The position numbers were made by a program, and so were the translations under genes. From Candidatus Omnitrophota bacterium (GTDB taxonomy: Bacteria; Omnitrophota; Omnitrophia; Omnitrophales; Aquincolibacteriaceae): a DNA stretch of 64,000 nucleotides. The notes under the pieces are model-generated. The model ran no database searches. It worked only from the letters and a program-made list of their open reading frames with translations, and was not told the DNA's origin. Below are positions 1,950 through 28,903 of this stretch, one piece after another (the stretch's first letter is position 1; each line of letters begins with the position of its first letter). Location of the stretch: the NCBI GenBank assembly GCA_903856085.1, contig CAIOAT010000016.1, forward strand, positions 8,581-72,580, written 5' to 3'.

Positions 1950-1994
1950 AGTTTAAATGAAAGCATCCTGGTTAGATGTAAAATTCCTGTAAAC
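1950..1994 (-). promoter_or_regulatory. Pho-box-like direct repeat plus candidate -10 in front of pstS
   Basis: Top strand has TGTAAAA (1977-1983) and TGTAAAC (1988-1994), 11 bp apart. On the gene strand this reads GTTTACA-N4-TTTTACA. A candidate -10, TAAACT (1950-1955), lies 21 nt downstream. The element sits between the porin stop (1997) and pstS. Confidence 0.5.
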
Positions 1995-1996
1995 TC

Positions 1997-3583: not shown

Positions 3584-3655
3584 AAGATTGGATCTCCTCC
3601 GGTTGAATGGGAATGGGGCAGAATTCTTTTCTGTCCGTTTGATTTTCATGCCGGA

Positions 3656-3710
3656 AGTATAGAAAACCCGTGTCAGGTCTCCATGATGGAAATGTAAAGA
3701 AATTGTAAGG
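3656..3710 (-). promoter_or_regulatory. Four-half-site Pho-box-like array plus -10 upstream of the porin gene
   Basis: Gene-strand half-sites are CCTTACA (3710-3704), CTTTACA (3699-3693), TCCATCA (3690-3684) and CCTGACA (3677-3671), spaced 11, 9 and 13 bp. A 9-nt gap follows, then TATACT (3661-3656). The array lies about 70 nt upstream of ATG 3583. Confidence 0.55.
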
Positions 3711-3790
3711 AAAAAAGTGACGGCTTTCGGATGGAGCAAGGAACAACTTGCTAACAACCTGCTAGGAGCTAACATTGTGGACAAGATTCA

Positions 3791-9231: not shown

Positions 9232-9385
9232 AAATGATTCCTTTCCTGGACTCAAGATCTACCCAGAATCATTATCGACGATCAACATGATGGGAGTGTT
9301 TGGCGGAGGAAAATTCCGTGTAAAATCATTTTGAAACGACGTAATCAGCTCTGGGGAAACAGGTTAAAGAAACCCTGCCGAACGC

Positions 9386-11455
9386 TCACTGCAGATTTTT
9401 ATTGGCCTTGGGACGCTGAGGCTTGAGATCAAGGGGAAGCTGTTTGTCATGCAAAGCTTCGTTCTCAAGCGCTTTTTGGCAAAGGTACTCTTGAACACGG
9501 AATTTCTTTTCGCCCGCAGGATCCTTTTTTTGATAGGTCCCATCGGGAGAAAGCCCCCAAGCCTTCTGGTTATCCTTGAAATAATGATGGAGGAGCTGAA
9601 TGAGTTCTTTTTTGTTTTTTCTATCCTCCACAGGAAACATGAGCTCAAGACGCTTATCAAAATTCCTCGGCATCCAATCTGCGCTGGAAAGATAAACTTC
9701 GTCGTCCCCTGCGTTCGAAAAATAAAAAATCCGACTGTGTTCCAGGAACATATCGACAATACTCACCACCTCGATATTTTCACTCAGGCCTTTGACTCCT
9801 GGCCGGAGGCAACAGATCCCGCGAACATTCAGTTTTATCTGAACCCCTTTTTGCGAAGCGCGATAGAGAGCATCAATGATCTCCTTATCCACCAAAGAGT
9901 TCATCTTCGCAATTATGAGGCCGGAGCGTTCGGGGGAACTCTGCGCAGACTCCCGAAAGATCAACCGTAAAAGCTTCCGGCGTAACCCATAGGGTGCCAT
10001 TTCGAGCTTGGAAAAATGACCGGGGCTTGAGAACCCCGTCATGAGATTGAAGAAGGAACTGACATCCGCGGCAAACTCATCATGACTCGTAAAAAGATTA
10101 AGGTCCGAATAGATCTGAGCGGTTTTTTCATTGTAATTCCCGGTTCCAAGATGCAGATACCGCTTGATCCCTGCGGCTTCACGACGAACAACCAAGCAAA
10201 CTTTGGAATGTGTTTTCAGACCAACCACCCCATAAAGGATCGTAGCCCCCGCTCTCTCCAAACGTTTGGCCTCTTCGATATTCCGCTCTTCATCAAAGCG
10301 CGCCTTCAGCTCAACTAAGACGGTAACCTGTTTTCCCTTTTCCACTGCTTTTTCAAGAGCATTAATGACCGGCGAATGATTCCCAGTCCTGTAAAGCGTC
10401 TGTTTGATAGCTAAAACATCCGGATCTTCTGCGGCAGTCGAAACAAACCGAAGAAAAGCACTGAAAGAATCGTAGGGATAATGCACCAACAGATCTTTTT
10501 CCCTGAGCAATCCCCAAAGGTCACCGGCTTCCGTCATTTCCAGAACGGGTCGCGGTATCCATGCGAGCCGCTTGAACCTTTCGAACCCGGGCTGGAATGC
10601 TAGCTGAGAAATGCTTTTAAGATCAAGCCATCCCTCACTTTTAAAGATCTCATGTCCCTCAATGCCCATTTTCTGTTTCAAATGGTCGATCATGTCATCG
10701 GACGCATCGATCTCAAGACGCACGACCCGGCTTTCCTTTCTAGACCGCAGAGCCTCACTCATAAGTTTTGCTAGGTCTTCGTCCTTTTCTTCATCGATCG
10801 TAAATTCCGCGCAACGCGTCACCCTAAGGGACCCCTGACGCCCGATCATAAACCCGAGAAAAAGCTCCTGCGCAAAAAGACCGATCACGTCTTCGATCAG
10901 AATGAACGCATGGCTAGATTCCGAGGGAAGCATGATCATGCGCGGACAATTTTTAGGGATCTCAACCAAGGCGTAACGTGCGGCTGCGAGATTGGTGGAT
11001 TCTGTGAGTTCAAAAATACGGTAAAGACTCAGGTTTGCGAGGCTCGGGAAAGGCTGTTCTTCATGAACCGCGAGCGGTGTGAGGAGCGGCAAGAACTCCG
11101 TCAAAAAAAGGTTTTTAATGAACAGGAACTGTTTCTCGTTCAGGGCTTGCGGAAGGACTCGCACAATACCGTCCCCTTCCATTTCATGGACAAGAAGTTC
11201 CTTGAAATAAAGCTGCTGCTTATGGATCAAGGAAGACGCCTGCTGATAGATCTCCAGCAGAAGTGGGTCTGTTTCAGGGACGCTGGCAACGCGAACCATA
11301 AAAAATTCGTCGAAATTGGAGCTGACGATCCCGACAAACTTCAAGCGCTCCAGAACAGGATTCGAGATATCCATTGCCTCTGCCAGAACGCGGGCATTGA
11401 ACCGAATCCATGATAATTCCCGATCAAAATATTTTTCTTGAGGGATATTTTCCAT
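9386..11455 (-). CDS. ppk: Polyphosphate kinase 1
   Basis: 689 aa with a PPK1 N-terminus (YFDRELSWIRFNARVLAEA) and the conserved blocks GLKTHSKVCLVVRRE and FLEHSRIFYF. Confidence 0.95.
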   Translation of the reverse strand: MENIPQEKYFDRELSWIRFNARVLAEAMDISNPVLERLKFVGIVSSNFDEFFMVRVASVPETDPLLLEIYQQASSLIHKQQLYFKELLVHEMEGDGIVRVLPQALNEKQFLFIKNLFLTEFLPLLTPLAVHEEQPFPSLANLSLYRIFELTESTNLAAARYALVEIPKNCPRMIMLPSESSHAFILIEDVIGLFAQELFLGFMIGRQGSLRVTRCAEFTIDEEKDEDLAKLMSEALRSRKESRVVRLEIDASDDMIDHLKQKMGIEGHEIFKSEGWLDLKSISQLAFQPGFERFKRLAWIPRPVLEMTEAGDLWGLLREKDLLVHYPYDSFSAFLRFVSTAAEDPDVLAIKQTLYRTGNHSPVINALEKAVEKGKQVTVLVELKARFDEERNIEEAKRLERAGATILYGVVGLKTHSKVCLVVRREAAGIKRYLHLGTGNYNEKTAQIYSDLNLFTSHDEFAADVSSFFNLMTGFSSPGHFSKLEMAPYGLRRKLLRLIFRESAQSSPERSGLIIAKMNSLVDKEIIDALYRASQKGVQIKLNVRGICCLRPGVKGLSENIEVVSIVDMFLEHSRIFYFSNAGDDEVYLSSADWMPRNFDKRLELMFPVEDRKNKKELIQLLHHYFKDNQKAWGLSPDGTYQKKDPAGEKKFRVQEYLCQKALENEALHDKQLPLDLKPQRPKANKNLQ

Positions 11456-11467
11456 AGTTTTGAAACT

Positions 11468-13030
11468 CTAAAGCGACGGGCCCGCGCCTTGCTTCAGATC
11501 GAGGGGTGCTCCAAAAACATCGGCGAACATGTCCCCTTTCCGTCGCAGGCTTTCCCGTTCAAGCGAAATATCCCCGATCTCTTTCGGCACCCAGATCGCA
11601 TAAGTGTCTTCCGAACGTTCCAGAGTAAACGACCGGATCTTCTGCTGGTGGCCGGTGTCCAAAGCGTCTGCAATGCGCAGGATGGAAGCAAGTTTTGAGA
11701 CGATTGCCCGGTCCGATTTCGCAAGAGACATGTAAGGTACGTGCGTTTCGCGCGGCGGCACACGGCGATGATACCGGACAACATTAGCGACAATATTCTT
11801 GTCGGTCCTCCTCAGCCCGAAGATCTCGGCGGCATCCACTAAATAATACGAATGCTTGTGGTGTCCCGAAGGAGAAACGTAGGTTCCAATATCATGTAAG
11901 ATACCGGAAACCTCGAGCAAAAGACGCTCGCGGGACCCCATGCCATGATCTCCCGCAAGCAGGTCATAAAGTTTCAATGAGAGTGAGGCCACGCAAACCG
12001 CATGCCCCTTGTCGTACATATATTTTGCCCCAAGGTGGTGGGCGGAATTAAGGACCTGCTTCGAGACGTCCGTTCTTCGGTAACCCGAAAAAAGCTGGGC
12101 CATTTCGAGCAAAAGACCGTCCCGAATACTTAATTTTGGGATAATGACCTCCTCCGCCTTGGTTTCATTTAAAAAATTCAAATAAAAAAGAAGCGCGGGG
12201 TAAAGGGACTCCGCATGCCCATAATCGAGAGAGTATTGCGCGGCAATCTCTTCGGGCGTCATTTTCCCCACCCGCCCCATAAAACTCACAAATTCTTTCT
12301 TTTCAAGAATGGTGAAACGGTCGAGAGTCTCCGGAAGAAGCTGCTGCGATACGAATCGCATATCTCCACCCAGAGCAACGAACGTATCGATCTGCTCCAT
12401 ACGAACTTCACGCGCCACGTTCTGTGCGATATCCCGGATACTCTTCTTCAGAACACGCTGTATGAGTCCCGCATCTTCTTTCCCGGCTACGGCCTGCTCG
12501 GGAAGCCTTACTGATCCTATCGGCAGGGTCCGCGTAACGCTCACCCGACCTTGATCCATGATGATCATTTCCGTACTGCCAGAGCCTACTTCGACGATCA
12601 GGCAATTCTTTTTTTCGAGATCGATCCTCCCCTCCAGCGCATGCTCGACCGCGATCAATTCGAGACGGTTTTCTTCCGGGCCCTCCAAGATCTCCACTTC
12701 GATGCCAGCGCGCACATAGATTTGATCGATGAAATTATCCCGATTCTGGGCCTCCCGGACAGCGCTCGTGGCGATCGCTTGGACTTTTTTGATTCCATAC
12801 GTATCGATCACAGACTTGAAGTCTCGGAGAATGTTCACACCCTGGCGCATGGAAGCACTGCTCAACCTGCCCGTTTTAAAAACATCTTTGCCGAAACGAA
12901 CCGGCTTTTGAAGCTGCTCCAAATAACGAATCTCGTTTTTGGCTCCAACCTCCGCAATCACCATGCGGATTGCAATGGTTCCGATGTCAATAACGGCGGC
13001 GATATGTTTTTGAATTTCTTGTTCAGGCAT
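11468..13030 (-). CDS. ppx: Exopolyphosphatase (Ppx/GppA family) with C-terminal HD domain
   Basis: ASKHA-fold motifs AAVIDIGTIAIRMVIAEV and VEVGSGSTEMI. The C-terminal HD region is ILHDIGTYVSPSGHHKHSYY. It lies 12 nt upstream of ppk1. Confidence 0.9.
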   Translation of the reverse strand: MPEQEIQKHIAAVIDIGTIAIRMVIAEVGAKNEIRYLEQLQKPVRFGKDVFKTGRLSSASMRQGVNILRDFKSVIDTYGIKKVQAIATSAVREAQNRDNFIDQIYVRAGIEVEILEGPEENRLELIAVEHALEGRIDLEKKNCLIVEVGSGSTEMIIMDQGRVSVTRTLPIGSVRLPEQAVAGKEDAGLIQRVLKKSIRDIAQNVAREVRMEQIDTFVALGGDMRFVSQQLLPETLDRFTILEKKEFVSFMGRVGKMTPEEIAAQYSLDYGHAESLYPALLFYLNFLNETKAEEVIIPKLSIRDGLLLEMAQLFSGYRRTDVSKQVLNSAHHLGAKYMYDKGHAVCVASLSLKLYDLLAGDHGMGSRERLLLEVSGILHDIGTYVSPSGHHKHSYYLVDAAEIFGLRRTDKNIVANVVRYHRRVPPRETHVPYMSLAKSDRAIVSKLASILRIADALDTGHQQKIRSFTLERSEDTYAIWVPKEIGDISLERESLRRKGDMFADVFGAPLDLKQGAGPSL

Positions 13031-13038
13031 GCTGTTCC

Positions 13039-14031
13039 CTACTTTTTGGCCGCTTTAAAAACTTCATGGGCCATTTTGGCGGCTCCTAAAATAACCGCAT
13101 TATCCTTCAGTTTGGACGGGACGATTTTCACCACTTTGGCGAGGGGCTTAAGCGCGTAAGCTTCCATCTCACGTCTGACCTCAGGAAGAATGATCTTTCC
13201 CATCGCCTCCATCATTCCTCCTCCCAAGAGGATCAATTCCGGATTCAAAATGTTCACCACATTCGCTAGCGCAACCCCGAGCCACCGGGAACGGCTCCGG
13301 ATCAGCTCCTCTAACGCGATATCCCCCGCTTTGATAGCGCGGGACAAAGCACCGCTGCGGATTTTTTTTACGTTATAACCGATCTCTTCGAGAAGATGCG
13401 GGCACTTCTGCCGCAGCAAGAGGAACCCCGCCTCCGATGCAATAGCATTCCTGCCGACCAAAGCTCCGACTTTTTGGCGCGACGTTTCAAAATCAGAAAA
13501 AGAAGGAAGTGACAGAAATGTCTGGCCGATCTCACCAGCTCCTCCAGAAGCGCCACGGTAAAGATGTCCGTTGATGATGAGCGCCCCGCCGATACCCGTT
13601 CCTAGGAAAACCCCCACGACTTCCCGATAACCCCGCGCTGCGCCGAATTGCTGTTCTCCGAAAAGCCCCGCATTGGCATCGTTTTCAATAAAGACCGGTG
13701 TTTTCAGCTTCGCTTTCAGTTTTTCAGCAAGTGAATAATTCTTAAAAAAAGATACGTTGGAGGAGACTTTGACGATCCCTTTATAGATATCAATGATTCC
13801 AGGACAACCCACACCGATGGTTACAAGATCACTCAGGTCCGACCCGGTTTCTTCCAGAACTTCCTCGATCCCGTCAATGAGCTTGTTGAAAAAGAACCTC
13901 TCGCCGCGATTACCGTCCATCTCAAGTTTGACGGTCTTTTTTAAACTAAATTTCCTGTCAAAAAGACCTATCAGAATCTTGGTCCCGCCCAGATCGATGC
14001 CAAGGATGAACTTCTTTTTCTTGCCCGCCAT
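13039..14031 (-). CDS. ROK-family sugar kinase lacking the zinc CxCGxxGC motif (candidate glucokinase, possibly polyphosphate-dependent)
   Basis: Motifs GIDLGGTKILIG, ENDANAGLFGE and GTGIGGALIING. The only cysteines are in GVGCPG and RQKCPH, so the usual ROK zinc motif is absent. SD GGGGAGAG precedes ATG 14031. The track start at 14061 falls inside the predicted -10. Confidence 0.75.
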   Translation of the reverse strand: MAGKKKKFILGIDLGGTKILIGLFDRKFSLKKTVKLEMDGNRGERFFFNKLIDGIEEVLEETGSDLSDLVTIGVGCPGIIDIYKGIVKVSSNVSFFKNYSLAEKLKAKLKTPVFIENDANAGLFGEQQFGAARGYREVVGVFLGTGIGGALIINGHLYRGASGGAGEIGQTFLSLPSFSDFETSRQKVGALVGRNAIASEAGFLLLRQKCPHLLEEIGYNVKKIRSGALSRAIKAGDIALEELIRSRSRWLGVALANVVNILNPELILLGGGMMEAMGKIILPEVRREMEAYALKPLAKVVKIVPSKLKDNAVILGAAKMAHEVFKAAKK

Positions 14032-14059
14032 AGACTCTCCCCTTTCAAAATTGATTTCC

Positions 14060-14103
14060 ATTATAATGGCTCAGGGAAGTTTTTATGTAAAGCATTTGTA
14101 AAG
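14060..14103 (-). promoter_or_regulatory. Pho-box-like repeat plus consensus -10 for the ROK-ppx-ppk1 operon
   Basis: Top strand has TGTAAAG (14086-14092) and TGTAAAG (14097-14103), exactly 11 bp apart. On the gene strand this reads CTTTACA-AATG-CTTTACA. TATAAT (14065-14060) lies 20 nt downstream, and ATG 14031 follows about 29 nt later. Confidence 0.6.
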
Positions 14104-14279: not shown

Positions 14280-17200
14280 TTATGCCGCTACTTTAACAGC
14301 CTTTGCATTTCTCCAGGAAGCAGCAAGGAACTCTGTGACAAGCATCAAGGCATCTTTCATGCCCCAAAGATCCCGTTTTCTTCCTAGCTCAAAAAGTTGC
14401 CGACTTGTGACAAGATACCAGAGAAGAGAAAAAAGAACCTCCGGGTCAGAGCTCTTCAACTCCTTATCGTAATAAACAAGATTCCCAACGCAACTCTTCA
14501 CCTTTTGGACTTCGCGGCGATCGATTCCGACATAAGCATAATCCAAGCGTTGATATTGAGGTCCGGTGACTAAGGGACGCAGGAATTTCAAAATGGAAGC
14601 ACTAATGCTATCAGATATCTCTACTAGCTGAAAATGTCCGGTAGGAAGCTCCATTTTCTTTATCTTTTGTTCGATTGCCTCTTTCCCGGGAAATCGACTC
14701 CTCTCGAACAGGATAATGACACGGAACGGCAGCCGCGAAAGCAGCAAAAGATGCTCATCGCGAATTCCGATCCTCGCGTCCAGGAAAAGGGTGTTCAAGG
14801 CATTGGCCCGCTGCGGAAGAGCGCGGAACATTCCCATTCCTTTTTGGAAGGCTAAAAAATCGTCCCCTGATAGCGCTAAAAGCTCCTTCAGATCCGGTCC
14901 TGTGCTTTCTGAAAGAAAACTCGCGTCACCCAAAAGAGATTTTAAGCGCGGTAAAAGTTTTACATCCTCCGGTCCTAGGATCCATTCCGTGATCTTGATG
15001 GCAACCAGAAGACGGACTTTCTCCGAAACAACCGGCGTCACGTCTTCTTGCAAGGAAATCTCACGCGTAACCTCTTTGGGATTGAGTTCTAACGCTGGGG
15101 GTTTTTCGGAAGTTCTGTCTTCTCTCAATTCGGAACGCAGCACCCCACCAGGGCCCACAGCAGCCAACGCGGTTGCAATCGCCGAAAAGTGCGTCGTTAG
15201 AATCTTGTAAGTACGCGGCGTAAAGACACCTCGTTTTTCACGCAACATCGTAGAAACATCCTCGGGGGAGAGGGCCACGATCTCAACGGCATCATCTCCC
15301 GGTCTAAATTCTTTCCAATTGAACTCTCCATTGAGCGAAAAATGAAACAACTTTACATCCTCTTTTCTTGTGGTGGGAACTTGCCTTCGCCCCTCATGAT
15401 GAACTTCATAGGAAAGAGGAGGGAGCTCCCGAACTGGTAATGAGGTTAAGGCCGCGGGAAGAGGGCGGCCATCACGGAGTTCTTCAAGGAACCCCCTCTG
15501 GATTGCGGCTTCCGGACTTTCTCCGGGCTCCAGATGCTCAAAAACGGGAAGATCCAATAGACCCGGATTACTGGAAGTTAAATTACTGCGCCGCTGAAAA
15601 ACAACTTTTCCATCCTTGGTCACAAATGCGGCAACCTTTAAGGCCGCCAGACCTCTTGCATGCCCCTGTTTTCTTGGCAAGTGTACGATTTGATCGCCTC
15701 GCGTATCACGAAACATAAAAATCTGCCGATCCGCGAGCAATGAACCTTCCCCCTCCAATCGCTCGACGGCTGTACGGTTCGCCAGCTCCGGAAAAGATAC
15801 CTCGAGGCGCTTCATCCGCTCCAAAATCCCAGCCCGATTGCTCCCAGATATAAAAAAATGATCGGAAGGCGCCGGAACAAAAGCCTCCACTTCAGGAGGC
15901 TTCTGCGCAGTCGCACGAAAGGTCTCCCACAGTTTTTTCCCCATCGTGCTATAAATCTTCGCATATGGATTGGCGGCATCTTGTCCATCCGAAAACGTTT
16001 TTTGATTATGAGCGAGCCTCTGAAGATTAGGCGACACCGAAGTATTCCCTCGAAGCTGAAGATCGAACTCAGCAACCACTCTCGCAAAATCCTCTACGAG
16101 ATCCACCACAAAAGCTCCATATTTTGAGATCAAGCTTTCTGTTTTTTTACGAAATACGTCTATCAATCCTTCCATCTGTTGACGTTCCTCCTCCGTCCTT
16201 GAAACAAGAGCCATGGGCCCTTTGGGAACTGCAAATTGAGGCGTGATCGCATTATCCAATGTCAGACCGGTCCCGAACAAATGCCCATACTGACCTAAGG
16301 CACCTTTCAATTCTTCTGGGCGACGAACCACATGCTCCACATCATGCCTCGGAGAACCGTTACGCCCCAACAACACGGGATGCCGATCTGTTTCAACTTC
16401 TTCCAGAGAAGCAAGCCGTGCGTCAATAACGATCTGACTTCCCTGGTTGTTATAGCTGATCACATTCGAGCTCAGGTCGCCTCCAGGGAAAATGATCTCT
16501 CCATGCTTCACGCCTTGCTCCCTGAAGTCGCCTGCCATCCGCAAAGCTTCGGCAAGATTCATCTTAAAGACCGCCATAGCAACCGCCAAAGGAATACCTG
16601 GCTGCGGGAACCAATAGATCTGTAATTTTTTACCCAACGACTCCGCCAGATCGCGAGCGGCAAAAAATTGTCCGGCATTCCCCGGGAAAAGGCCGTCGGA
16701 TTCCGCTACTTTGAAACGGAAATGTTTCAGAACATGATCCTGCGCTACCATTGTTTCAAAAAAATTCCGATTCTCTCCGTTTTTAGGCGGGAGCAAAATG
16801 ATCACCTCGACGTCCTCCCTCAAATTTTCATCCAAAAGCGCCCGGCTCATCTTTGCCATCATAAGATTTTCTCCGGCGACATCGTCCATCTGGGAAAGGG
16901 CAACTTCCCTCCTGGGTTCTGAGGCCGGTCGTGACATTTCATATTGTTTGTTTCTCATACGTTTCGCGGACGCCCGTAAGGATTGGATCTCACGTTTGAA
17001 AGTCCCGTAACCATTTCCACTAAGATTCCTCAACATCGGCCCCACATGCCTCCAAACTGAGAAAAGGGTCCACAAAACACCAAAGATTGTCGGAACTGTA
17101 ATCAACAACTGGTGCAAACCAAATATAAGGTTCAGGATGGGTACAATAAAAAGAATCGCCACTCCGGCCACCGCCAATGCCCGGCCAAGCCATCGTCCAT

Positions 17201-20200
17201 AAAAATGGTCTAGCTTGTTTCCTTCCAGCTCATCAAGTTCGGCTGTGGGATGGAACGCTTTATGGAGTCCTGCTTTTGCCACGCGCATGGCCTCACGTTC
17301 ATTTTCAAATCCGGATATTCCCAGTTTTTGCATATTGGCCGTCACGCGTCTAAAGCTGTTCAGCGTCACCCACCGATTGATCGCCACCATCAGCGTCACC
17401 CCGAGGCAAAGACGCCATATGGAAAAGGTCCAGAGAACCTTCCGATTGTGCAGGATCTTCTGCCAATCCGAGAACTTCATTCCGTCTTGAAGCAATAACT
17501 TGGGAGGATAAAGATCGATTACCTGGGAAAGGGCAATGAGCCGATTCGACAGATTGAATCCTTCATTAAAATTCTCTGCAAAATCGGCTGATTTTTCAAG
17601 AAACCTCAAAACCTCCTGCTCTTCGATATCATTCCCAGTCCCCCGAGTCGCCTGAAATTGACGGGAAGCCGTCTGAGCGGTCAGGATCGATAAGCGGGCC
17701 AAAATCCCACGGATCTTGACCAGAGAATGCGTGTCGGGTTTCCACATTTCAGAAAGGTCCTCAAAATGTTCCCGGGAAAATCTAAGCAGCGGATGCTGCG
17801 CCAACTCGCTGGCCTTTGTGGTGATCATATCCCTTTCGCCCGAACCCAAGTGCTCATTTTCTAAAAGAAGTCGAGTCCAAGCCTGAAGCGGCTCAACGAT
17901 TTCCTGGAACACCCGCATATCCACGTCATCACCGCGGACCGCTCTTTGTTTATTAGCGTTTCTTTTTAAACGCATCCCGATTTTTCCCGCCTCGTCAAAG
18001 AGAATCTCTAGAGATTCCACGGAATCTCTCCGGAAAAACTTCTCATGCCCTCTTTTTTTCATCAATGCGAAAAAAAGTTTTGGAAGATTCCAGACAAGTA
18101 GAACCAAAGCAAGAACCGGGAAAAAACGCCAACTGATGTAACGAGCCCCAAAAGGGTTCATGAAATACCTCAAGAGAGCCGCTCGCTGCGTGGGATTTTG
18201 TTCTTCCCTTACTAGCTCCAAAAGTCCCAGAACCCCGATCTTTTGTCCGGGATGCATTTGAAATTGTTCCTGAACGGATGCGGGAATCGAATCTATTAAG
18301 CGAAGAGGTGGCGACTTTCTTTCGACAAGATCGCCTTTCTTCTTCGCCCAGGCTGAGGCTTTGGCGGACCCATCGAAAGCAATATCCGCAACACTACCCT
18401 CGCCAAGAATTCCCTCCGTATCGTCGCTGCGGATCACAACTCCCTCCCGTTCACCCAAAAGCCATTGGCTGCTGTTCGCGAGAGGGATCACTGCATACAC
18501 TGTCCCCATCAAAACGCCGCGGGATGTCACGACAGAGACTTTATCTCCTGTTTTAACGCTTCCCGTTTCGACAGGGAGCAGAAAAGGATCCTCATTGGAA
18601 AGACGGCCTGTCCATTCTGCAGAACGGGGGTCAACGCTCGTTCCCAAAAAAACCTCTTTGTTTACAATGCCGGCTTTCGTCACCTGCCCCGCCGCCAACG
18701 TTTGTCCATCTAAAGCAGTAACGCCCAGAACACGACCCCCCACGGGAGCTTTGAGCAGGATGGGCAATCCGCTCCGCTGGATCCCTGCAACGGCCCGCTG
18801 AGCTCTTTTTTCATAGTCCTGGAGAGAGCTTTCGGGAAGAGTCCTAAAGTCCTGGTTCGCCTTACGCATTGTCCGTGCAAGAGTCTCAAGCTGTCTGGCA
18901 ATCTTGAGCTGCCCACCTTGCCCCACAGGGATCCATTCCCCCAAGGAGTCCCCGGCCTTAACCGTTTGTCCATCCCGAACTGTAGCTCGAAAAATTCCGG
19001 CGTCGATCCCGGGAACGGGAGGAACACCGACCGGGATGAACTGTGAAGATGGAATAGTGGTGTGAAATCCGGCATTGTGATGCAATCCTAACGATTCGAC
19101 GCTCGGAGTATTATCTTTTATCAGCTTAATATCATATGCACAACTCGCCCCATGGGCCGGAAGAGATGTGGAAGATGGGAAGCTGAAATGAACTGTTAAA
19201 ATAAATTCGCCGTCCACTCCTTTCGCAAGGTCAAAATGACTTGCTTCCCAATCCAACACATTCACGGAATGCCCATTGACGGAAAGTTCGATATCATCGG
19301 CTCCGGAATATCCCGGAGGAAGAGCAATCTTTATGACCCCCTCATCCAGAGGAACGATCCCCACGGCATAACTACCAGCCGTTGCCGGCCCCTGATCCAG
19401 TGTTTGAACGATTGCCGGGCGGGGCGAAACCAGGATGTCGGCTTCTGCTTCCGCCTTCAGTTGAGCGAGCTCCAGTTGATGTTCGATCCTCTCAAATTGA
19501 TATTGAAATATTGTGTCCCGGTCGAGAGTCCCCGCATCTTTTTCTCCTCTGGCCACCAACCCGCCAAGTTCTCGGATCCTATCTTCCAGAAATTGAGTCC
19601 TGTTATCGCGTTCTGTATCCTCTCCTCTCGCAAGCAGGTCGCCTTTTTTGACAACATCTCCAGGTTTAACGGCATAAGTCATCTTATCTGCCGTCAATGG
19701 GGCTTTGAGCATGACCGCACCGGGAGGATTCACGATTGCTTGTCCTTTGCCTGTATACAAGACAGTTGCTGTGTTTGCGACAGAGTGTTGCTCTTCAAAC
19801 ACTGGTTTGACCTCTGTCCTATCAGAAACAAGGGAGGCTGATGCGACGGAAGACGGCTCTTTCACGGAAGCCTCCTCGTTCGTGACATTCAAAGCATTGG
19901 CAGTCCCGGCTGGGCTTTGAAATGGTATCCCGGAAAAATCTTTCTTCGTGAGTTTCTCCTTTGCGCCTGACGAAGTCATTACCTGTTCTCCTTGAGAAAC
20001 CGCATCGGCCAAGGTTTCGCGCCCATCCACGTTGCCTACACCAAGAATTTCGATGACGGAACTATCCGGAGAGACCGATTGGGGGTTGGATGTCGCATGA
20101 TCGGCTTCAGAAATTTTTGGGCTCTCCGCGGTGGTTGGAAGTGCGGAAGATGGCCCATCCGCAGAAACCCTGTCGGAGAGGACCGATGATGCCGCTGCAA

Positions 20201-23200
20201 CCGGAGAAATATACGCTCTCGATACTTTTGAAGAATGCCCGTTCTCTGGAACGGAAGACGCTCCCTCCAAAGAAACAATTCGGAAATAGCCTTGGTGTTG
20301 GGGCACCACCACGAATGTTGCTTCATAAGGATTCTTGGTTTCCTTGCGTAATGTCCAGATCCCCTTTCTTTCCGTTTTAAGAAATTTCGCACCCTGCAGG
20401 TCTTTTCCTAAAAAAGTCACTGTAGAGGAGGGAACGCCCCGCTGCATTAAAAGCTGCGCTCCTTTCATGTTTTCGGTGATCATTTGTTTGCCCACCAATT
20501 TCTGAATCGCCAATTCATTGGTTTGAGCCAAGGCTGACGAAGCCATGAGAAAAGCCCCCAGCAAAAATCCTCCCATTATTTTTAACAAGAAATGGATTCC
20601 CAGCTTTCGGCGAACTTCTGAACGCTGTGGTGCAATTCCTAGCCCGAAGAAATTTGCCCCGGTGATAACATTCAAAGGTTCTACCCACGTTTCGGATGCG
20701 CGCAGATCTGTAAAACCCTTCGTAGTCCATACTTTTTCGGATACAACTTGAGCATTCAACCAATCTCTTAGTTCGTCCGGGATAGTTTTTGATCCCACCA
20801 GTCTCCACGAGAAAACCTTCCGGGAAAAACCTAAGACGATTTGGATATCAGCAATGGGTGGGGCGTTTTGATTCGTCTTCACGTGAAATAGGGTGCCATT
20901 TATGCCAAGCTTGTGCCCTCGTCTTAAAAATCCCTGCAATTCTGGAGACATCTCCAAAACAATTTTGCCAAGATCAACCCTGTAAACCAACCCCGCAACC
21001 TTTGTCTCTGGCCCAAAAGCTTCAATGTGCTTCGCCGAAAGAGAGGCTGCGCTCCGCATTTCGAATCTTGTCACACCCTTCTTGAAAGACCGATAAGCCT
21101 GCATCAAAAGGCCTGCGGCGATTGCTGACGCTTCCTCTTTTTCTTCAGCCCTTAGCTTTGATTCCCGCGTGTTCAATTCGATATATTCACGAATTCGAAC
21201 GTTAAGTCCAGATAGCGCAGAGGAGGTAAAATTCATCTCGAAAGATTCGATCGCTTTAGCGGCTAGCGCGTAAGGAACCAAGGTATCCGGCAGATCCTTG
21301 GCCTGTCCAAGATCGTTTCTAACCGATTCCAAATCGGCAAAAGTAACCCCGCCATTCCGTTCTTTTCCATAAATGAGTCCCCACGCAAGCGCCCAAGCCG
21401 CCATCGCCTGCTCAGCAGGGATTCGAATGGCCCCCTTAGCCGACGTCATAAGCTCGAGTGACACGGCGAGCATAGACGTCGGGATCATTGCATCCGCATC
21501 ATCCAACAACCCGCCATCGATCAAGCTCACGATCGCATGATGGGCAAGAGCACGCACGGTTCCGCAATCACTGAGATTAAGTTGCAAAAGCACTTCTGCA
21601 CGCTTCAAAGCTTCCCCAAGGATTTCCTTATTCATAACGGGATCAAGATAATTTGAACGCGCCTCCGAACGAACGACGATTTGCGCTTTCACCGATCCCG
21701 GTTCAGAACGGCCAGACGCTGCCTTTTCGCGAGAAAACCGATGGCGAGAGAGTTTCGAATCAACATTGGAACGCCGAAAGGCCTCTGAAATCAAAACACC
21801 CAGATGAATTTTTTTAATCATTTTCAAAGCCACCCAGGAAAAGGCAATATCCCCCGTAAGGATGACGAGCTCTGAAAGGTAGGGGCTTACAAGCTTGTTG
21901 ATAATCATCGCCATCCCCTCAACAGGAAGGAACCATAACAACAATTGACGGCGACTCTCCTTAAAAGATCCGTGGCTTTTGAAGAGTCGTAGAGATTCGA
22001 AGTTATTTTCAGGATAGATGTTTGTATAATATTTCCAGAGCATAAGTGGATAAAAAATATAAAAATTGATCAAAGCATCCCCCATGGTTTTAAGGACGAT
22101 CTCAGACCACACATCAAGCCATGGGGAAAGATTTAATTTCCCGATTAAGGCATAATAAACGGTAAAAAATAAAGCGAACAAGCTAGCTGGAGCTGCGGCT
22201 TTCCTGGAGTCTTTCCAGAATGTTTTCATGAACACTCCTCGAAAGCCATGGCGAAGATAATCCTGCATCCAGACACAATATGCCGCAATCATGCCAGCCC
22301 AGGCGATACTCACGCCAAGTGAAAGAACTAAAGAATGCCATGACGCGTTCTGAAGATGCGGTTTAAGGATAAACGCCAGCCCCAGAGTGGCGGCTGAAAA
22401 TCCAGCTGTCCCCATCGCGGCAGGTGTGATTTGTTTGAGATGAGCGAGTTTGGATCTCTGGTTCCTTATTTCGGACCGGCCGAGCAAGACTTGGGGCAAT
22501 CCCTTTACGTCCCGAGTAAGCACTTGCAGCTCTTTGGCTGCCAATGTGGCCGCCTTGCGAGAGAATAGGATTTGGATCTGATTACTGGGGATCTTTAAAG
22601 CGTCCACAATAAGCCGGTCCTCGGTAACGCCAGCCCCACGAGCCTTTTTCAGATAGCCATCAATCCTTGCATTCTCGGCCTCCGCAATCCGTATCGTCTC
22701 ATTTTCAGCCACAATCGTTTGAAGAAGACCTGCAATCTTCTCTTCGATTTTGTCATGAACTGTCAAGAGCTCGGCTTCCGCTACACGAGTCTCCAGAAGA
22801 GCTATTTCCCGATTGGCTCGCTCAGCGCCCCCGAAAGTCACCTTCCCGCCGAGACCTACGGCCTGCTGATCCTCCGTGCGTTGTTTTGCCTCCGGAACAA
22901 CTCTTGTATTGAACACATCCGGAACTTTTGTCCCATAGGAATCGAAATAGTTGAATCCCTTAAGACCGATCGAGTAACCGTTCTCTCTTGCAGCCAATCT
23001 CGCGGCCGTTGCGGCAGTCAAACGGGCCTCATAAGCCAACGCAAGTTCACGGTTTGCCGGAAGTTTGACGCCTTCTTTGGAGGTTGCTTTAAGACCAAGC
23101 GCTATTCGTTGATCGGTTGTGATCGTCCACCCTTCCGGAAATCGCACATAATTCAAGGCATTGGAAAAAGTCGCACATCCTAAGATGTTTTGGCCATAGA

Positions 23201-25985: not shown

Positions 25986-26096
25986 TTTTTGCCCTTTTCC
26001 AATGGTGGAAGACAACTCTTTAAGGTTTTATAAAAGTTTTTCCTTCTGATCTCACGGAAAGCTTAACTTCGTTGTGAAAACTCTGCATCACATCCC

Positions 26097-26114
26097 GGTA
26101 AAGATAATGTAAAA
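26097..26114 (-). promoter_or_regulatory. Pho-box-like repeat 85-130 nt upstream of the giant ORF start
   Basis: Top strand has GGTAAAG (26097-26103) and TGTAAAA (26108-26114), 11 bp apart. On the gene strand this reads TTTTACA-TTAT-CTTTACC. No convincing -10 was found at the expected distance. Confidence 0.4.
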
Positions 26115-26283: not shown

Positions 26284-26337
26284 ATTTCAAAAATTTCTTG
26301 GAAACCTTCCTTTCAGAAGTGTAAAGAGTTGGTAAAG
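26284..26337 (-). promoter_or_regulatory. Pho-box-like repeat plus candidate -10 in the giant-ORF/phoB divergent region
   Basis: Top strand has TGTAAAG (26320-26326) and GGTAAAG (26331-26337), 11 bp apart. A weaker in-phase site, GTTTCCA, is at 26305-26299. A 9-nt gap follows, then TGAAAT (26289-26284) on the minus strand. The repeat is also about 100 nt upstream of phoB. Confidence 0.45.
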
Positions 26338-26439: not shown

Positions 26440-27129
26440 ATGGCAAGCGAAACGATTCTCCTCATTGAAGACGAAAAGAACATCCTTGAGCTTGTGAAAT
26501 ACAACCTCGAGCAGGAGGGTTTTCGCGTCCTCACCGCGACCAAAGGCAACGCAGGTCTTGAGACAGCGCTTAAAGAAAAACCAGCCCTTGTGCTCCTCGA
26601 CCTCATGCTCCCGGAAATCAATGGCCTCGAGATTTGCAAAACCCTAAAACAGACCGAAAAAACACGCAGGATCCCTATCATCATGCTTACGGCCAAAGGC
26701 ACCGAGTCCGATAAAGTCGTCGGCCTCGAACTCGGCGCCGATGATTACATCACCAAACCTTTCAGCCCCCGGGAACTCGTAGCTCGCATCAAAGCCGTCC
26801 TTAGACGCTCTCAGGAAAAAGCCCCGGAAGAGATCTTGAGATCCGGAACGATCGAGCTTGACGTGACAAAGCATGAGCTGCGATTAAAAGGAAAGCCCGC
26901 CGAAATTACCGCCAAAGAATTCGAACTCTTGCGCGTACTCATGAGTTCCAAGGAACGGGTCCTGACGCGCGAGGTTCTCTTATCAAAAGTTTGGGGTTAT
27001 GAGAATTCTGTGAATATCGAAACGCGGACTGTCGACATGCACGTCGGACAGCTACGAAAAAAACTTGGCAAAGAAGCGGATCGGATCGTCACGGTTAAAA
27101 GCGTCGGCTACCGTTTCGACGGAGAATAA
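26440..27129 (+). CDS. phoB: OmpR/PhoB-family response regulator (phosphate regulon regulator)
   Basis: Receiver domain (ILLIEDEKNILELV, LVLLDLMLPE, MLTAKG) plus a winged-helix C-terminus (TRTVDMHVGQLRKKL, VKSVGYRF). It is adjacent to a PhoR-like kinase and to the pst/ppk genes. Confidence 0.8.
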   Translation: MASETILLIEDEKNILELVKYNLEQEGFRVLTATKGNAGLETALKEKPALVLLDLMLPEINGLEICKTLKQTEKTRRIPIIMLTAKGTESDKVVGLELGADDYITKPFSPRELVARIKAVLRRSQEKAPEEILRSGTIELDVTKHELRLKGKPAEITAKEFELLRVLMSSKERVLTREVLLSKVWGYENSVNIETRTVDMHVGQLRKKLGKEADRIVTVKSVGYRFDGE

Positions 27130-27130
27130 G

Positions 27131-28903
27131 ATGGGCTTTCCAAAGATCGGTTTCGCCAAACGTCTCCTCGTGCTGTATGGCATTATTTTCATCCTCGTCC
27201 TGCTCGTAACCGATTGGACGCTTTCTCATTTCCTCCAAAAGCGTGACCTCCAACAGCTTCAGAGCTCTCTTTCGCGTCAGTCGACCCTGATCCGCGAGAT
27301 TGCGACTCCTCTATTAAAGGAGGCTCCCAAGCTCCAATCCAAAGTCAAAAAGCTAGCCGAGGGGACCGATCTTCGCATCACGATCATCGATCCCGAAGGC
27401 GCGATCCTTGCCGATTCCAGTGAAACCAGCGAGGCTCTCGCGAAAATGGACAATCACGCGACCCGGCCCGAGGTTGCGTCCGCACTGAGAAAAGAAACGG
27501 GCATGAGCATCCGTTACAGCATGACTGTTCAGACCAAAATGCTTTATATCGCTATCCCCATCCTGGAACACTCCCAGATCCTAGGGGTCGTTCGCACCGC
27601 GATGCCGATCACACGCGTCGATGAGATCCTGGCCTCGGTCCGCCGACCCGTGATGCTCGCAGCGGTCCTCGGCATTTTGATCGTCCTCGTTGCCGGCATT
27701 CTCTTCGGCGGTCGCCTCACCCAACGCATAGGACGCATCACCTCCGTAGCCGAACGTTATGCCCGCGAGGACTGGTCTGAAAAAATCCTGATGGACGGCC
27801 GCGACGAGCTCAAAATGCTCGCAGATACCATGAATCAAATGGCCACATCCCTGCGCTCAAGGATCGAAGACCTGGAAAGTGAGAAAGGTAAGATTTCCGT
27901 CATTTTGAGCAATATGAACGAAGGGGTGATCGCGATTAGCCGGCGCAAACAGTTTGTTATGGCAAATCCCGCAGCGGAAAAAATCTTTGGATTCACTGCC
28001 GCCCATACGCAGGAGAAAAGTCTGATCGAAATCACACGCCACCCTCAACTCGAAAGGATCGTGGACCACGCCTTCCAGGAGCAAAAAAACGCCTCCTCCG
28101 AAATCCAGATCTCCGGCAAGATAAAAAAGACACTTCTTGCAAATGTGATCGTTCTCGATGCCCACGCCCGCGATATCGGCGGCATCCTTGTTTTTCATGA
28201 CATGACGGAGCTCCGTCGACTCGAGAATATCCGGAAGGAATTCGTAGCCAATGTTTCCCACGAACTCCGCACGCCCCTCACCTCGATTAAGGGATTCATT
28301 GAAACGTTGCTGGGCGGCGCCTTAAAAGATCCCCCGACCAGCGAACGGTTCCTGAAAATTGTTTCGGAGGAGACGGATCGACTCGGAAGGCTGGTGGAAG
28401 ATATTCTGACGCTTGGCGAGATCGAACAGGGCGCGGCTCTGGTCAGGAAAGAAAAGATCGATCTTGCCTCTGAACTCCCGGCCATCCTGGAACGATTTAA
28501 GACCCAGCTCCAAGAAAAAAAGATCGCGGTCGAAAACCGCATCTCCGGGAAACCTCTCCCGCTATCTGGAGACAGGGACAAAGTCCATCAGGTCTTCGTC
28601 AATCTCATCGACAATGCGATCAAATTCAATAAGCCTGAAGGGATGATCGTCCTGTCTGCCGATCAAAGTCCGAAAGGCGTGGTGATTACCATCGAGGATA
28701 CGGGGATCGGTATTCCTGAAGAGTCCCTAGGACGGATTTTTGAGCGGTTCTTTCGTGTGGATAAAGCACGTTCAAAGGAGCTTGGAGGAACCGGATTGGG
28801 CCTAGCCATCGTTAAACACATCATGGAAGCGCATGGCGGCCACGCCACATGCCAAAGCACCCCCGGCCAGGGTTCCCGCTTTTCGGTTTTTTTTCCCGCC
28901 TGA
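27131..28903 (+). CDS. phoR: Sensor histidine kinase, PhoR-like
   Basis: Two TM helices flank a ~150-aa loop. PAS segment NMNEGVIAISRRKQFVMANPAAEKIFG, H-box FVANVSHELRTPLTSIKG, N/G boxes NLIDNAIKFN, DTGIGIP and GGTGLGLAIVKHI. ATG 27131 is separated from the phoB stop by a single nt. The track start at 27065 is rejected. Confidence 0.8.
   Translation: MGFPKIGFAKRLLVLYGIIFILVLLVTDWTLSHFLQKRDLQQLQSSLSRQSTLIREIATPLLKEAPKLQSKVKKLAEGTDLRITIIDPEGAILADSSETSEALAKMDNHATRPEVASALRKETGMSIRYSMTVQTKMLYIAIPILEHSQILGVVRTAMPITRVDEILASVRRPVMLAAVLGILIVLVAGILFGGRLTQRIGRITSVAERYAREDWSEKILMDGRDELKMLADTMNQMATSLRSRIEDLESEKGKISVILSNMNEGVIAISRRKQFVMANPAAEKIFGFTAAHTQEKSLIEITRHPQLERIVDHAFQEQKNASSEIQISGKIKKTLLANVIVLDAHARDIGGILVFHDMTELRRLENIRKEFVANVSHELRTPLTSIKGFIETLLGGALKDPPTSERFLKIVSEETDRLGRLVEDILTLGEIEQGAALVRKEKIDLASELPAILERFKTQLQEKKIAVENRISGKPLPLSGDRDKVHQVFVNLIDNAIKFNKPEGMIVLSADQSPKGVVITIEDTGIGIPEESLGRIFERFFRVDKARSKELGGTGLGLAIVKHIMEAHGGHATCQSTPGQGSRFSVFFPA

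Follow-up and report, generated by a model that had tools for sequence, protein, structure and literature searches.

The question raised by this locus is what function is served by a Nudix-type domain with an unusual box, and by the conserved module directly ahead of it, when both are part of a giant envelope protein of an Omnitrophota bacterium and lie beside genes for phosphate and polyphosphate metabolism. The locus was analysed within a window of 64,000 nucleotides, and all coordinates below refer to this stretch.

The giant open reading frame and its relatives

The region at 15138-16838 (minus strand) corresponds exactly to aa 3060-3626 of one stop-free open reading frame (ORF; 14280..26015, minus strand), and the peptides quoted from it in an earlier note on this DNA, where it was described as part of one long chain, were found there. 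The ORF encodes a multi-module envelope protein of 3,911 aa when counted from a TTG codon; an ATG at 25985, ten codons in, is the likelier start. Both of the domains proposed earlier for this region are present, but their borders are better placed about 25 residues upstream, so that the first, referred to here as the orphan module, spans aa ~3044-3425 (15741..16886, minus strand) and the Nudix-fold domain spans aa ~3428-3615 (15171..15734, minus strand), including its N-terminal hairpin and a C-terminal FTPR motif. The two domains are adjacent and occupy the C-terminal end of the last segment by which this ~3,900-aa protein is anchored to the membrane. The C-terminal tail module (14283..15122, minus strand; aa 3632-3911) is the least conserved part of the ORF, and a family search with it gave no match.

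Relatives of the giant protein were reached via the neighbouring ROK gene, and they are encoded by syntenic giant genes (3,471-3,840 aa) located upstream of a ROK-PPX-PPK1 block. The placement in Omnitrophota comes from the names of the sequences that cluster with the ROK protein. Pattern scans of genome and metagenome contigs for further relatives found none. A word-indexed protein search with the 567-aa region recovered one fragment (P0001), and the same search with a 7-sequence alignment gave no match; the query protein itself was not recovered, so that long proteins of this kind seem to be absent from that collection and the rarity observed there is an artefact. The gene diverges extremely fast in comparison to its neighbours. 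The orphan module and the Nudix domain are its most conserved parts, with 36-41% identity to the L-type relatives, as against 24-32% or no match for other segments. A decaying pseudogene is ruled out by the undamaged ORF of several independent assemblies and by the conservation of these two domains, which is the highest in the gene.

Giant multi-domain proteins of Omnitrophota, termed Archaeovorins, have been described in two preprints, one from 2026 and the other by West-Roberts et al., 2023 (10.1101/2023.11.21.568195), in the latter of which they are defined by a length of >30,000 aa and by glycosyltransferase, methyltransferase, peptidase and NUDIX content. The ORF considered here shares with them the phylum, a membrane-associated multi-module organization, the recurrent NUDIX domain and the question of cleavage. 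However, it is 3.9 kaa rather than >30 kaa in length, and it lies in a phosphate island and not beside secretion or pilus genes. A Pfam search of the giant ORF gave no match for C39 or S8 peptidases, glycosyltransferases or methyltransferases. With 3,911 aa and only NUDIX above its Pfam cutoff, the protein is not an Archaeovorin as defined.

Membrane topology and resemblance to export systems

The tethering of the chain to the membrane, as claimed in the earlier note, is borne out by its hydrophobic segments. A membrane helix at aa 2631-2653 (18057..18125, minus strand) ends a long, presumably periplasmic part and is followed by a basic stretch, and a hydrophobic hairpin of two membrane helices at aa 2940-2988 (17052..17198, minus strand) tethers the orphan module and the Nudix domain. 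Clusters of basic residues are found after the helix, before the hairpin and downstream of it. The type of protein present in the window also has a fourth hydrophobic segment, at aa 2861-2879, which contains an Arg; the topology is ambiguous in this respect, as the module and the Nudix domain would be periplasmic if this segment spans the membrane.

The upstream parts of the chain recall tripartite efflux systems. Motifs resembling those of lipoyl domains in HlyD-type adaptors (VKxGDxVKKGDLL and APVGGRV) are present at aa ~2100-2440, and a lipobox stands ahead of a region that weakly matches OEP, the family of TolC-type outer-membrane factors. The Pfam matches that bear on the periplasmic adaptor and export device put forward in the earlier note are both below their cutoffs (Biotin_lipoyl_2, 17.3 bits against 29.8; OEP, 16.3 bits against 22), and searches of PDB sequences and profiles gave no match to the N-terminal domain or to the adaptor-like and TolC-like parts. 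Unlike in tripartite efflux, all of these parts are in a single ORF, which has no pump domain of the ABC, RND or MFS type.

The Nudix domain and its variant box

NUDIX (PF00293) is the only Pfam family whose cutoff was passed by the giant protein. The match, at aa 3461-3597, scored 25.6 bits with the whole protein and 32.1 bits (E 1.3e-7) with the sub-sequence, the cutoff being 21.1. In a library of 1.84 billion sequences, small Nudix proteins (E about 1e-5) were the only matches to the domain outside the giant family, and profile searches with PADLOC and PHROGs gave generic Nudix matches only. The AlphaFold model of the domain has a pLDDT of 83.8 and a pTM of 0.80, and the top 50 Foldseek matches of this model in the PDB are all Nudix-fold proteins. 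The best of them is Escherichia coli YfcD (2fkb, E 2e-10), followed by other Nudix hydrolases and type-1 IPP isomerases; GDP-mannose mannosyl hydrolase and NadM-Nudix are also among the matches. A profile comparison with the PDB likewise placed YfcD (2.8e-17), IDI (2e-16) and DR0079 (3e-14) closest. These results place the domain firmly within the Nudix fold, in the YfcD / type-1 IPP-isomerase-like clade, and it is supported by structure prediction, whose failure to support it had been named beforehand as grounds for abandoning the assignment.

With the YfcD/DR0079/IPP-isomerase-like branch the domain shares an N-terminal hairpin with a His, the Q-R-R and P-G motifs, a His before the box, E-E-L and a C-terminal F-T-P. 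It differs in being fused into a 3,900-aa membrane protein and in the absence of several clade-invariant residues, and YfcD, unlike this domain, has the canonical R-E in its box. A function as type-1 IPP isomerase was rejected: the PRK03759 model gave 18.9 bits against a cutoff of 127, and F3492 is found at the position of the catalytic Cys of the isomerase.

The variant box, FEHLEPGESPEAAIQRGFLEELR, is located at 15474..15542 (minus strand; aa 3492-3514). The sequence reported for it earlier is present, although the high end of the interval then given (15477-15554) was about 12 nt off. The canonical box, G-x5-E-x7-R-E-U-x-E-E-x-G-U, is departed from at three positions, with E3493 at the first G, G3508 at the E of R-E and R3514 at the last G, whereas E3499, R3507 and the E3511-E3512 pair are retained. 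The earlier description of R3507-G3508 and of the intact E-E pair was thus accurate, but it made no mention of E3493 and R3514.

Two of these deviations are coupled. Among 122 stand-alone homologues, the residues at the first-Gly and RE positions were E/G in 115 and G/E in the remaining 7, with E/E or G/G in none; the 115 may represent a single clade and the search was seeded with E/G sequences, so that independent events are few. Both states also occur within the giant family, where E..G is present in the window protein, P0030, P0001 and P0032, and G..E in L002, L003, L004, L005, L012, L013 and P0031, the E-E pair and the Arg of the box being kept in all members. The change from R-E to R-G therefore appears to be one half of a coupled swap, by which the glutamate would have moved from the helix position after the Arg into the loop, where E3493 takes the place of the first glycine of the box. 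A putative structural rationale comes from MutT chemistry, by which the first Gly and the Glu of R-E would belong to the same metal site. Because the box still has four carboxylates (E3493, E3499, E3511 and E3512), the domain most likely retains binding of a divalent metal and a diphosphate-containing ligand. In the earlier note R-G had been read as a mark of altered or lost activity. This reading is not sustained, as R-G is the usual state (115/122) in the closest stand-alone subfamily and is perfectly coupled to the Gly-to-Glu change.

This subfamily (P0034-P0036 and about 110 more) consists of free-standing proteins of 170-220 aa, often auto-named IPP isomerase, with the box signature [AG]-E-H-L-x-P-G-E-x7-R-G-x2-E-E-L. 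The window domain has the identical signature, including E-H, P-G-E, R-G, E-E-L and the coupled E/G state. Of the 45 positions with a conservation of 80% or more in the subfamily, it retains 27. Outside the box, a His (100% conserved), a Lys (98%), a Trp (96%) and a Glu (96%) that the stand-alone proteins retain are replaced in the window domain by A3458, T3480, L3487 and K3555, respectively. The His and Lys align to residues of IPP isomerase that presumably serve there as a metal ligand and in diphosphate contact. Because several residues invariant in the stand-alone cousins are absent, the substrate of the window domain is probably different from theirs. Three of the stand-alone R-G Nudix genes had neighbourhoods without a common theme, which hence gave no hint as to the substrate.

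The orphan module

The orphan module is a lineage-restricted conserved module whose N-terminal half is alpha/beta (Rossmann-like) and whose C-terminal half is mostly helical. Its family has 4 members among 1.84 billion representatives, and it is 36-64% identical to its relatives. No match to the module was found in Pfam (even at E 10), NCBIfam, PHROGs or PADLOC, or in the PDB by sequence or profile. A structural model built from an alignment of 4 sequences is of low confidence (pLDDT 58.4, pTM 0.43), and a Foldseek search with it gave no match below E 0.1. A beta-alpha-beta core at aa ~3059-3179 (16479..16841, minus strand; model residues 20-140) is modelled better, with a pLDDT of 70-88. Four invariant core motifs, PPxxGEN, ESDGxFPGxAG, YWxP and FPGG[DN]L, each come right after one of four successive predicted strands. 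The earlier description of this region as an unplaced globular module is consistent with its conservation and with the lack of family matches. A non-enzymatic repeat, which would have spoken against that description, is ruled out, as the sequence is non-repetitive and is without a paralogue in the window.

The phosphate and polyphosphate island

The giant ORF is flanked on both sides by genes related to phosphate. A PhoB-like response regulator and a PnpS/PhoR-like histidine kinase (26440..28903, plus strand) are divergently transcribed from it, the former scoring 265 bits, just below the cutoff of 296 for the PhoB model, and the latter 413 bits with the PnpS model (cutoff 400). Directly downstream are genes for a ROK glucokinase-family protein, a Ppx/GppA exopolyphosphatase and polyphosphate kinase 1 (9386..14061, minus strand). 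PPK2, PstS and PstC in this island are all above their model cutoffs.

A Pho-box-like tandem hexamer, TTTACATTATCTTTACC, is present at 26097..26113 (minus strand), about 110 nt upstream of the ATG of the giant ORF, and another at 14086..14102 (minus strand), between its stop and the ROK-PPX-PPK1 block. The pattern TTTACA-N5-TTTAC[AC], with an 11-bp period, was defined post hoc after one copy was seen; the window has 3 copies of it, where 0.11 would be expected. All three copies are upstream of minus-strand island genes, the giant gene among them. A copy with 1 mismatch is found at 26320-26336; when 2 mismatches are allowed, this same post hoc pattern occurs 14 times in the window against 3.5 expected. 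The TTTACA hexamer also resembles a -35 element.

An adjacent PhoB/PhoR-type pair, phosphate and polyphosphate genes and tandem repeats in the promoter region are what is looked for in a Pho regulon. Based upon these features, the phosphate context proposed earlier holds good, and the giant gene appears to be part of a Pho-type phosphate and polyphosphate island. In eukaryotes, cleavage of polyphosphate by Nudix enzymes is on record (PMC6522730, PMC8064635). Nudix polyphosphatases of the DIPP/Ddp1/Aps1 type are similarly tied to polyphosphate and phosphate homeostasis (PMC6522730, PMC8064635, PMC11323792), but they are eukaryotic and of a different Nudix clade, and the link in the present case is one of gene neighbourhood only.

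A proposed membrane-tethered unit for phosphoanhydride compounds

The reading that we prefer, with modest confidence (a probability of roughly 0.5), is that the orphan alpha/beta module would combine with the Nudix domain into a two-domain unit, tethered to the membrane, for the handling of a phosphoanhydride compound under phosphate scarcity. This unit would hydrolyse, or at least bind, a diphosphate-linked compound, for which a nucleoside diphosphate derivative, a (p)ppGpp-like nucleotide and polyphosphate are candidates, and it would work beside the membrane part of the protein under these conditions. The scavenging of NDP compounds, suggested in the earlier note, is speculation.

Junction motifs and possible processing of the giant protein

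RSE[ILVA]R motifs were observed at module junctions, ahead of internal signal peptides. One of them, RSELR (15123..15137, minus strand; aa 3627-3631), comes directly after the Nudix domain and is kept in every relative.

These motifs suggest a reading that is compatible with the two-domain unit and changes only what the acting unit would be. Here the giant ORF is a polyprotein with RSE[ILVA]R as its processing sites, and the domains considered above act in a product of ~1,830 aa (aa ~1804-3626), comprising a signal peptide, the adaptor-like periplasmic part, the membrane helices, the orphan module and the Nudix domain, and separated from the TolC-like lipoprotein and the C-terminal tail. We regard this as possible, but tentative. 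Five motifs of the form R[SA]E[AILV]R are found in the giant ORF, where 0.17 are expected for a looser pattern, and only six across the six reading frames of the window. Each motif site is written in different codons, which indicates a constraint on the peptide and rules out a DNA or RNA element such as a ribosome-binding site. Three of the five motifs stand ahead of a lipobox signal peptide, a membrane block or a signal peptide, and a like placement is seen in L003 and P0033. Further, two modules that are missing from relatives have the motif at their borders, and recombination breakpoints are located at or near the RSELR after the Nudix domain. The cleavage points of Omnitrophota giant proteins are stated to be unknown (10.1101/2023.11.21.568195). 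On the other hand, processing is predicted from sequence, the motif is degenerate at some junctions of the relatives (RPELR and RSETR in L002, RLQER in P0033), and it may function in linking or docking rather than in cleavage.

An extended form of this proposal is less probable still, and we consider it rather unlikely. It holds that the ORF encodes a true bacterial polyprotein, in which R-S-E-[ILVA]-R marks the sites of processing as well as of cassette gain, loss and recombination, and whose products form a phosphate-starvation-induced machine spanning the envelope. The released parts would be the TolC-like lipoprotein, extra membrane and soluble modules, the signal-peptide-bearing chain of adaptor, membrane part, orphan domain and Nudix domain, and the tail protein, and the cytoplasmic unit of orphan domain and Nudix would process or sense a phosphoanhydride such as polyphosphate.

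Alternative roles of the two domains

Because the subfamily His and Lys are lost, a non-catalytic binding role is a serious alternative to hydrolysis, though we give it only about one chance in four. The Nudix domain would then be a sensor that binds a diphosphate-linked small molecule and relays its state to the membrane part. Ligand sensors of this kind are exemplified by Nudix-type regulators such as NrtR and by the degenerate NUDT9-homology domain of the TRPM2 channel, a eukaryotic domain of the ADP-ribose pyrophosphatase clade. The latter serves in ligand binding and, much as is proposed for the present protein, combines an altered R-E with a C-terminal position on the cytoplasmic side of a membrane protein. 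The loss of several subfamily-invariant residues, the departure of the box from the canonical motif at three positions and the fusion to a membrane protein, beside another conserved domain that is not enzyme-like, are all consistent with a sensor. However, the acidic residues are truly lost in TRPM2, whereas here the carboxylate appears to be relocated. The E-E pair is invariant, and the retention of four acidic box residues in both family variants via the coupled swap would be unexpected if metal chemistry were dispensable.

It is more doubtful that the orphan module is a divergent sugar-1-phosphate nucleotidyltransferase-like (GT-A-like) enzyme, which together with the Nudix domain would form a make-and-break pair for a nucleotide-sugar, by analogy to the bifunctional NadM-Nudix enzymes. 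The beta-alpha-beta core with invariant loops after its strands would suit such an enzyme, as would the presence of GDP-mannose mannosyl hydrolase and NadM-Nudix among the structural matches of the Nudix domain. Against this, the model of the module is of low confidence and without a Foldseek match at the level given above, no HMM or PDB sequence signal for a nucleotidyltransferase or a GDP-fucose pyrophosphorylase is present in it, and the loop after strand 1 is PPKNGEN and not the glycine-rich G-x-G-x-R/K loop that is the signature of sugar-1-phosphate nucleotidyltransferases.

It is quite improbable that the two domains are delivered out of the cell within a predatory or host-directed surface machine, of the kind proposed for much larger giant proteins of Omnitrophota, with the Nudix domain acting on prey molecules. 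In favour of this, NUDIX is recurrent in Omnitrophota giant proteins, which are proposed to act on prey, the C-terminal part would lie outside if the fourth hydrophobic segment spans the membrane, and the gene diverges extremely fast relative to its neighbours. Against it, a strongly basic sequence follows the last helix, the gene lies in a phosphate/polyphosphate housekeeping island with Pho-box-like sites and no secretion or pilus genes near, and the protein is ten-fold smaller than the described class.

Implications

For the annotation of Nudix proteins, these results indicate that R-G in place of R-E need not mean a dead box, and the rule of coupled positions provides a simple guide for the many Nudix proteins annotated as "IPP-isomerase-like". 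For the biology of Omnitrophota, the locus presents a mid-sized giant gene that appears to be wired into a phosphate/polyphosphate island. Its strongly constrained parts are the orphan domain and the Nudix domain only, and these are hence the parts to express and assay. The junction motif provides a handle on whether and where Omnitrophota giant proteins are cut and, if the polyprotein reading is true, it would be the first concrete candidate for a cleavage site in these proteins.

Nudix Domain of the Giant ORF

The region at positions 15138–16838 on the reverse strand corresponds exactly to residues 3060–3626 of a single uninterrupted ORF (14280–26015, reverse strand), which encodes a giant protein of 3,911 aa if counted from a TTG codon, although translation more likely begins at the ATG at 25985. 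An earlier note had described here an unplaced globular region followed by a Nudix domain in which the glutamate of the R-E pair in the box is replaced by glycine. These observations were confirmed and their interpretation was supported in part. The peptides quoted in that note are present in the giant ORF, and so is the variant box, FEHLEPGESPEAAIQRGFLEELR (aa 3492–3514), which was located at nt 15474–15542, a few bases from the position originally assigned to it.

The Pfam NUDIX model matched aa 3461–3597 above its curated cutoff, with scores of 25.6 bits for the whole protein and 32.1 bits (E 1.3e-7) for the sub-sequence. Searched exhaustively with HMMER, a set of 1.84 billion representative proteins gave eight matches in total, four of which were fragments of the giant-protein family and the other four small stand-alone Nudix proteins (E ~1e-5). 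In a nine-sequence alignment with relatives and small Nudix proteins, the window domain aligned end-to-end with the latter, N-terminal hairpin and C-terminal F-T-P motif included, and the profile based upon this alignment matched E. coli YfcD (2.8e-17), type-1 IPP isomerases (2e-16 and weaker) and Deinococcus DR0079 (3e-14) in the PDB. The AlphaFold model of the domain had a pLDDT of 83.8 and a pTM of 0.80, and its top Foldseek match was again YfcD (2fkb, E 2e-10), followed by NudI, RppH, GDP-mannose mannosyl hydrolase and IPP isomerases. Structure prediction thus supports the proposed Nudix fold, and the domain is a new member of the known YfcD/IDI-like clade. Its identity as an IPP isomerase was ruled out by a score of 18.9 bits against the equivalog cutoff of 127, and is also opposed by the Phe present at the position aligned to the Cys of the isomerase.

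Coupled Substitutions in the Nudix Box

Such variants of the box had been described as often having altered or lost hydrolase activity. Among 122 stand-alone proteins, gathered with the profile of the nine-sequence alignment and aligned to the window domain, the column of G3508 contains Gly in 115 and Glu in seven, and that of E3493, the canonical first glycine of the box, contains Glu in 115 and Gly in seven. The two columns are perfectly coupled (first-glycine/R-E residues: E/G, 115; G/E, 7; E/E and G/G, 0), in a search that was seeded with E/G sequences and where the 115 E/G sequences may be one clade. Both states also occur within the giant family, E-H...R-G in the window protein and its relatives P0030, P0001, and P0032, and G-H...R-E in those from the syntenic loci L002, L003, L004, L005, L012, and L013 and in P0031. 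In proteins of the G..E type, the x5-E position is occupied by Asp and the Arg is preceded by one additional residue, and hence four acidic box residues are kept in both types. In MutT chemistry, the carbonyl of the first glycine and the R-E glutamate share one metal site; by analogy, a glutamate at either of these positions could serve the same site. Due to the perfect coupling in the homologs and the presence of both states in the giant family, the R-G box appears to be a hallmark of the subfamily with built-in compensation, rather than a mark of lost activity.

Of the 45 positions with at least 80% conservation among the stand-alone proteins, the window domain keeps 27. It is without the invariant His (A3458), the 98% conserved Lys (T3480), and the 96% conserved Trp (L3487) and Glu (K3555). 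In the alignment of the profile with PDB sequences, the missing His and Lys correspond to the metal-binding His and the diphosphate-contacting Lys of IPP isomerase. Because these two conserved positions are missing, the ligand or the chemistry of the window domain has probably shifted. The loss of these four subfamily-conserved residues also favors the main rival explanation, in which the domain is, as in TRPM2, a non-catalytic sensor. In the reading that we prefer, metal and diphosphate binding would be retained through the relocated glutamate.

Upstream Module

The module preceding the Nudix domain (aa ~3044–3425), searched both alone and as a seven-sequence profile, had no match in NCBIfam, PHROGs, PADLOC or the sequences of the PDB, nor in Pfam even when matches up to E 10 were considered. 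It is also non-repetitive and has no paralog in the 64-kb window, which speaks against its being a repeat, and it remains, as first noticed, an unplaced region: an orphan domain. The module shows 61–64% identity to P0030 and P0033 and 36–38% to the other lineage, with ~100 invariant columns. Its structural model was poor (pLDDT 58.4, pTM 0.43) because the underlying alignment contained only four sequences, and a Foldseek search with it returned nothing below E 0.1. Within this model, residues 20–140 (pLDDT 70–88) are predicted to form a beta-alpha-beta-alpha-beta-alpha-beta unit, and the invariant motifs PPxxGEN, ESDGxFPGxAG, YWxP, and FPGG[DN]L directly follow its four predicted strands, which would be the usual location of the ligand in doubly wound alpha/beta folds. 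The description of the module as enzyme-like is plausible, and a nucleotidyltransferase-like nature serves as a lead only.

Divergence of the Giant Gene and its Junction Motif

In several assemblies of independent origin, ROK-PPX-PPK1 is immediately preceded by a syntenic giant gene encoding 3,471–3,840 aa. The organism is an uncultured member of the Omnitrophota; its ROK protein is 92–97% identical to its cluster mates, among them proteins under the names "Omnitrophica bacterium RIFOXYB12_FULL_50_7" and "Candidatus Omnitrophota bacterium." The flanking proteins (ROK, PPX, PPK1, and others) exhibit 72–96% identity between the window and L002, L003, L004, and L012 (82–96% to the window in the three closest loci and 78–96% in L004), and for segments of the giant protein the corresponding values are 24–41%, which makes the giant gene a hot spot of divergence. 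Two window modules (aa 1186–1449 and 1455–1798) are missing in the relatives; the best-conserved segments are the Nudix domain (~40%) and the upstream module (~37%), and this region is thus the core under constraint in a gene that otherwise diverges fast. In L012 (4023–4036) the giant gene lies in two overlapping ORFs in different frames (1,777 and 1,761 aa), and on the ENA contig of P0001 (genes 2–1204 and 1177–2799) the split separates the module from the Nudix domain; either assembly frameshifts or real splits could account for this.

The motif R-[SA]-E-[AILV]-R is present in five copies in the giant ORF, where 0.17 are expected for a looser pattern, and these represent five of the six copies across all six frames of the window. 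The five copies of the ORF lie, on the reverse strand, at aa 683–687 (nt 23955–23969), 1180–1184 (22464–22478), 1449–1453 (21657–21671), 1798–1802 (20610–20624) and, as RSELR after the Nudix domain, 3627–3631 (15123–15137). Their codons differ at every site. In three of the five cases, what follows is a lipobox signal peptide (aa 692–710), a membrane block of four helices, or a signal peptide (aa 1805–1829), as is also true of L003 and P0033, and the two extra window modules are bounded by the motif. It is found at equivalent junctions in L003 and P0033 and after the Nudix domain in all relatives, and degenerate forms occur in L002 (RPELR, RSETR) and P0033 (RLQER). In P0001 and P0032, a Nudix domain of the window type (53–71% identity to the window and P0030) is joined to a C-terminal tail that shares 88% identity with the other lineage and 27–31% with the window type, which indicates a recombination breakpoint at or near the RSELR after the Nudix domain. 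Judging from these sequences, the motif is possibly a polyprotein processing site or a cassette boundary.

The N-terminal domain of the giant ORF (aa ~80–140; ~25600–25780, reverse strand), with no Pfam or PDB match, contains HIQDAH...(30 aa)...MLFIEGASGP, resembling the metal-site pattern of ChaN/TraB/TIKI-type proteins; if protease-like, it could bear on processing of the giant ORF. In a preprint on giant genes of Omnitrophota, NUDIX is among the recurrent domains and the cleavage points are stated to be unknown (10.1101/2023.11.21.568195), and in one pipeline signal peptides called at internal positions are treated as artefacts and removed (10.64898/2026.06.07.730766). In comparison with the "Archaeovorins" of Omnitrophota, the giant ORF is ten-fold smaller and its gene context is different.

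Phosphate Island

Divergent from the giant ORF are genes for a PhoB-like regulator, whose score of 265 bits falls slightly short of the equivalog cutoff, and a PnpS/PhoR-like kinase, whose 413 bits exceed the cutoff of 400. The genes downstream of the giant ORF and on its strand are ROK, Ppx/GppA, PPK1, an unassigned gene, two acyltransferases, PPK2, another unassigned gene, PstS, and PstC. The two island genes without family assignment (7471–9255 and 1997–3784, reverse strand; ~595 aa each) are kept in the relatives (a 586-aa gene in L002, L003, and L012); the former has a weak PHP match only, and the latter may correspond by position to a Porin_5-matching gene of a relative's locus.

The repeat TTTACA-N5-TTTAC[AC] has reverse-strand copies a short distance ahead of the giant ORF (26097–26113), ROK (14086–14102), and pstS (1977–1993). 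The pattern TTHACA-N5-TTHACM, which was set post hoc from the copy TTTACA-N5-TTTACC that precedes the giant ORF and which overlaps -35-like hexamers, occurs three times in 64 kb against 0.11 expected, with no shuffle containing three. A looser pattern gave 14 matches against 3.5 expected, further sites being at 26320–26336, 9308–9335, and 3693–3709. Pho boxes of PhoB/PhoP regulators have an 11-bp period, which the layout of these repeats resembles. Based upon the three repeats, the giant ORF, ROK, and pstS are predicted to form a single regulon controlled by the neighboring PhoB-like regulator. Together, the regulator/kinase pair, the island genes and the repeats bear out, at the level of sequence prediction, the Pho-regulated context suggested earlier. 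The ROK ORF (13039–14061, reverse strand) is 340 aa long here and 330 aa in all cluster mates, and a -35/-10-like pair ends at 14063; its true start is therefore probably about ten codons downstream of the listed ATG.

Membrane Topology and Proposed Function

Ahead of the module, the giant ORF contains a hydrophobic segment (aa 2631–2653), a tight two-helix hairpin (aa 2940–2988), and a weaker segment with a conserved internal Arg (aa 2861–2879), whose counterpart is sub-threshold in the other lineage. Lys and Arg accumulate behind the first helix, ahead of the hairpin and over the 50 residues that follow the latter. With three true helices the module, Nudix domain, and tail would be cytoplasmic, and with four they would be outside; the cytoplasmic location is favored. 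The part before the first helix (aa 1830–2630) is preceded by a signal-peptide-like segment and has lipoyl-like motifs typical of HlyD-type adaptors, with Pfam matches below cutoff and empty PDB searches, and the lipobox at aa 692–710 is followed by a region with a weak TolC-family (OEP) match. These features make the suggested export device possible.

The giant ORF of this phosphate island carries an orphan conserved domain and a YfcD/IDI-like Nudix fold, fused after membrane helices. We suggest that this membrane-tethered unit would bind or hydrolyze a phosphoanhydride-containing compound under phosphate limitation, the giant gene presumably being co-expressed with the polyphosphate and phosphate-uptake genes. 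Polyphosphate is a candidate ligand, attractive by gene neighborhood only. Nudix polyphosphatases are documented in eukaryotes (PMC6522730, PMC8064635), and they belong to a different clade from the window domain. The fused architecture within a Pho island is a new version of known kinds, and the coupled-swap rule and the junction motif are the main sources of interest in this locus.
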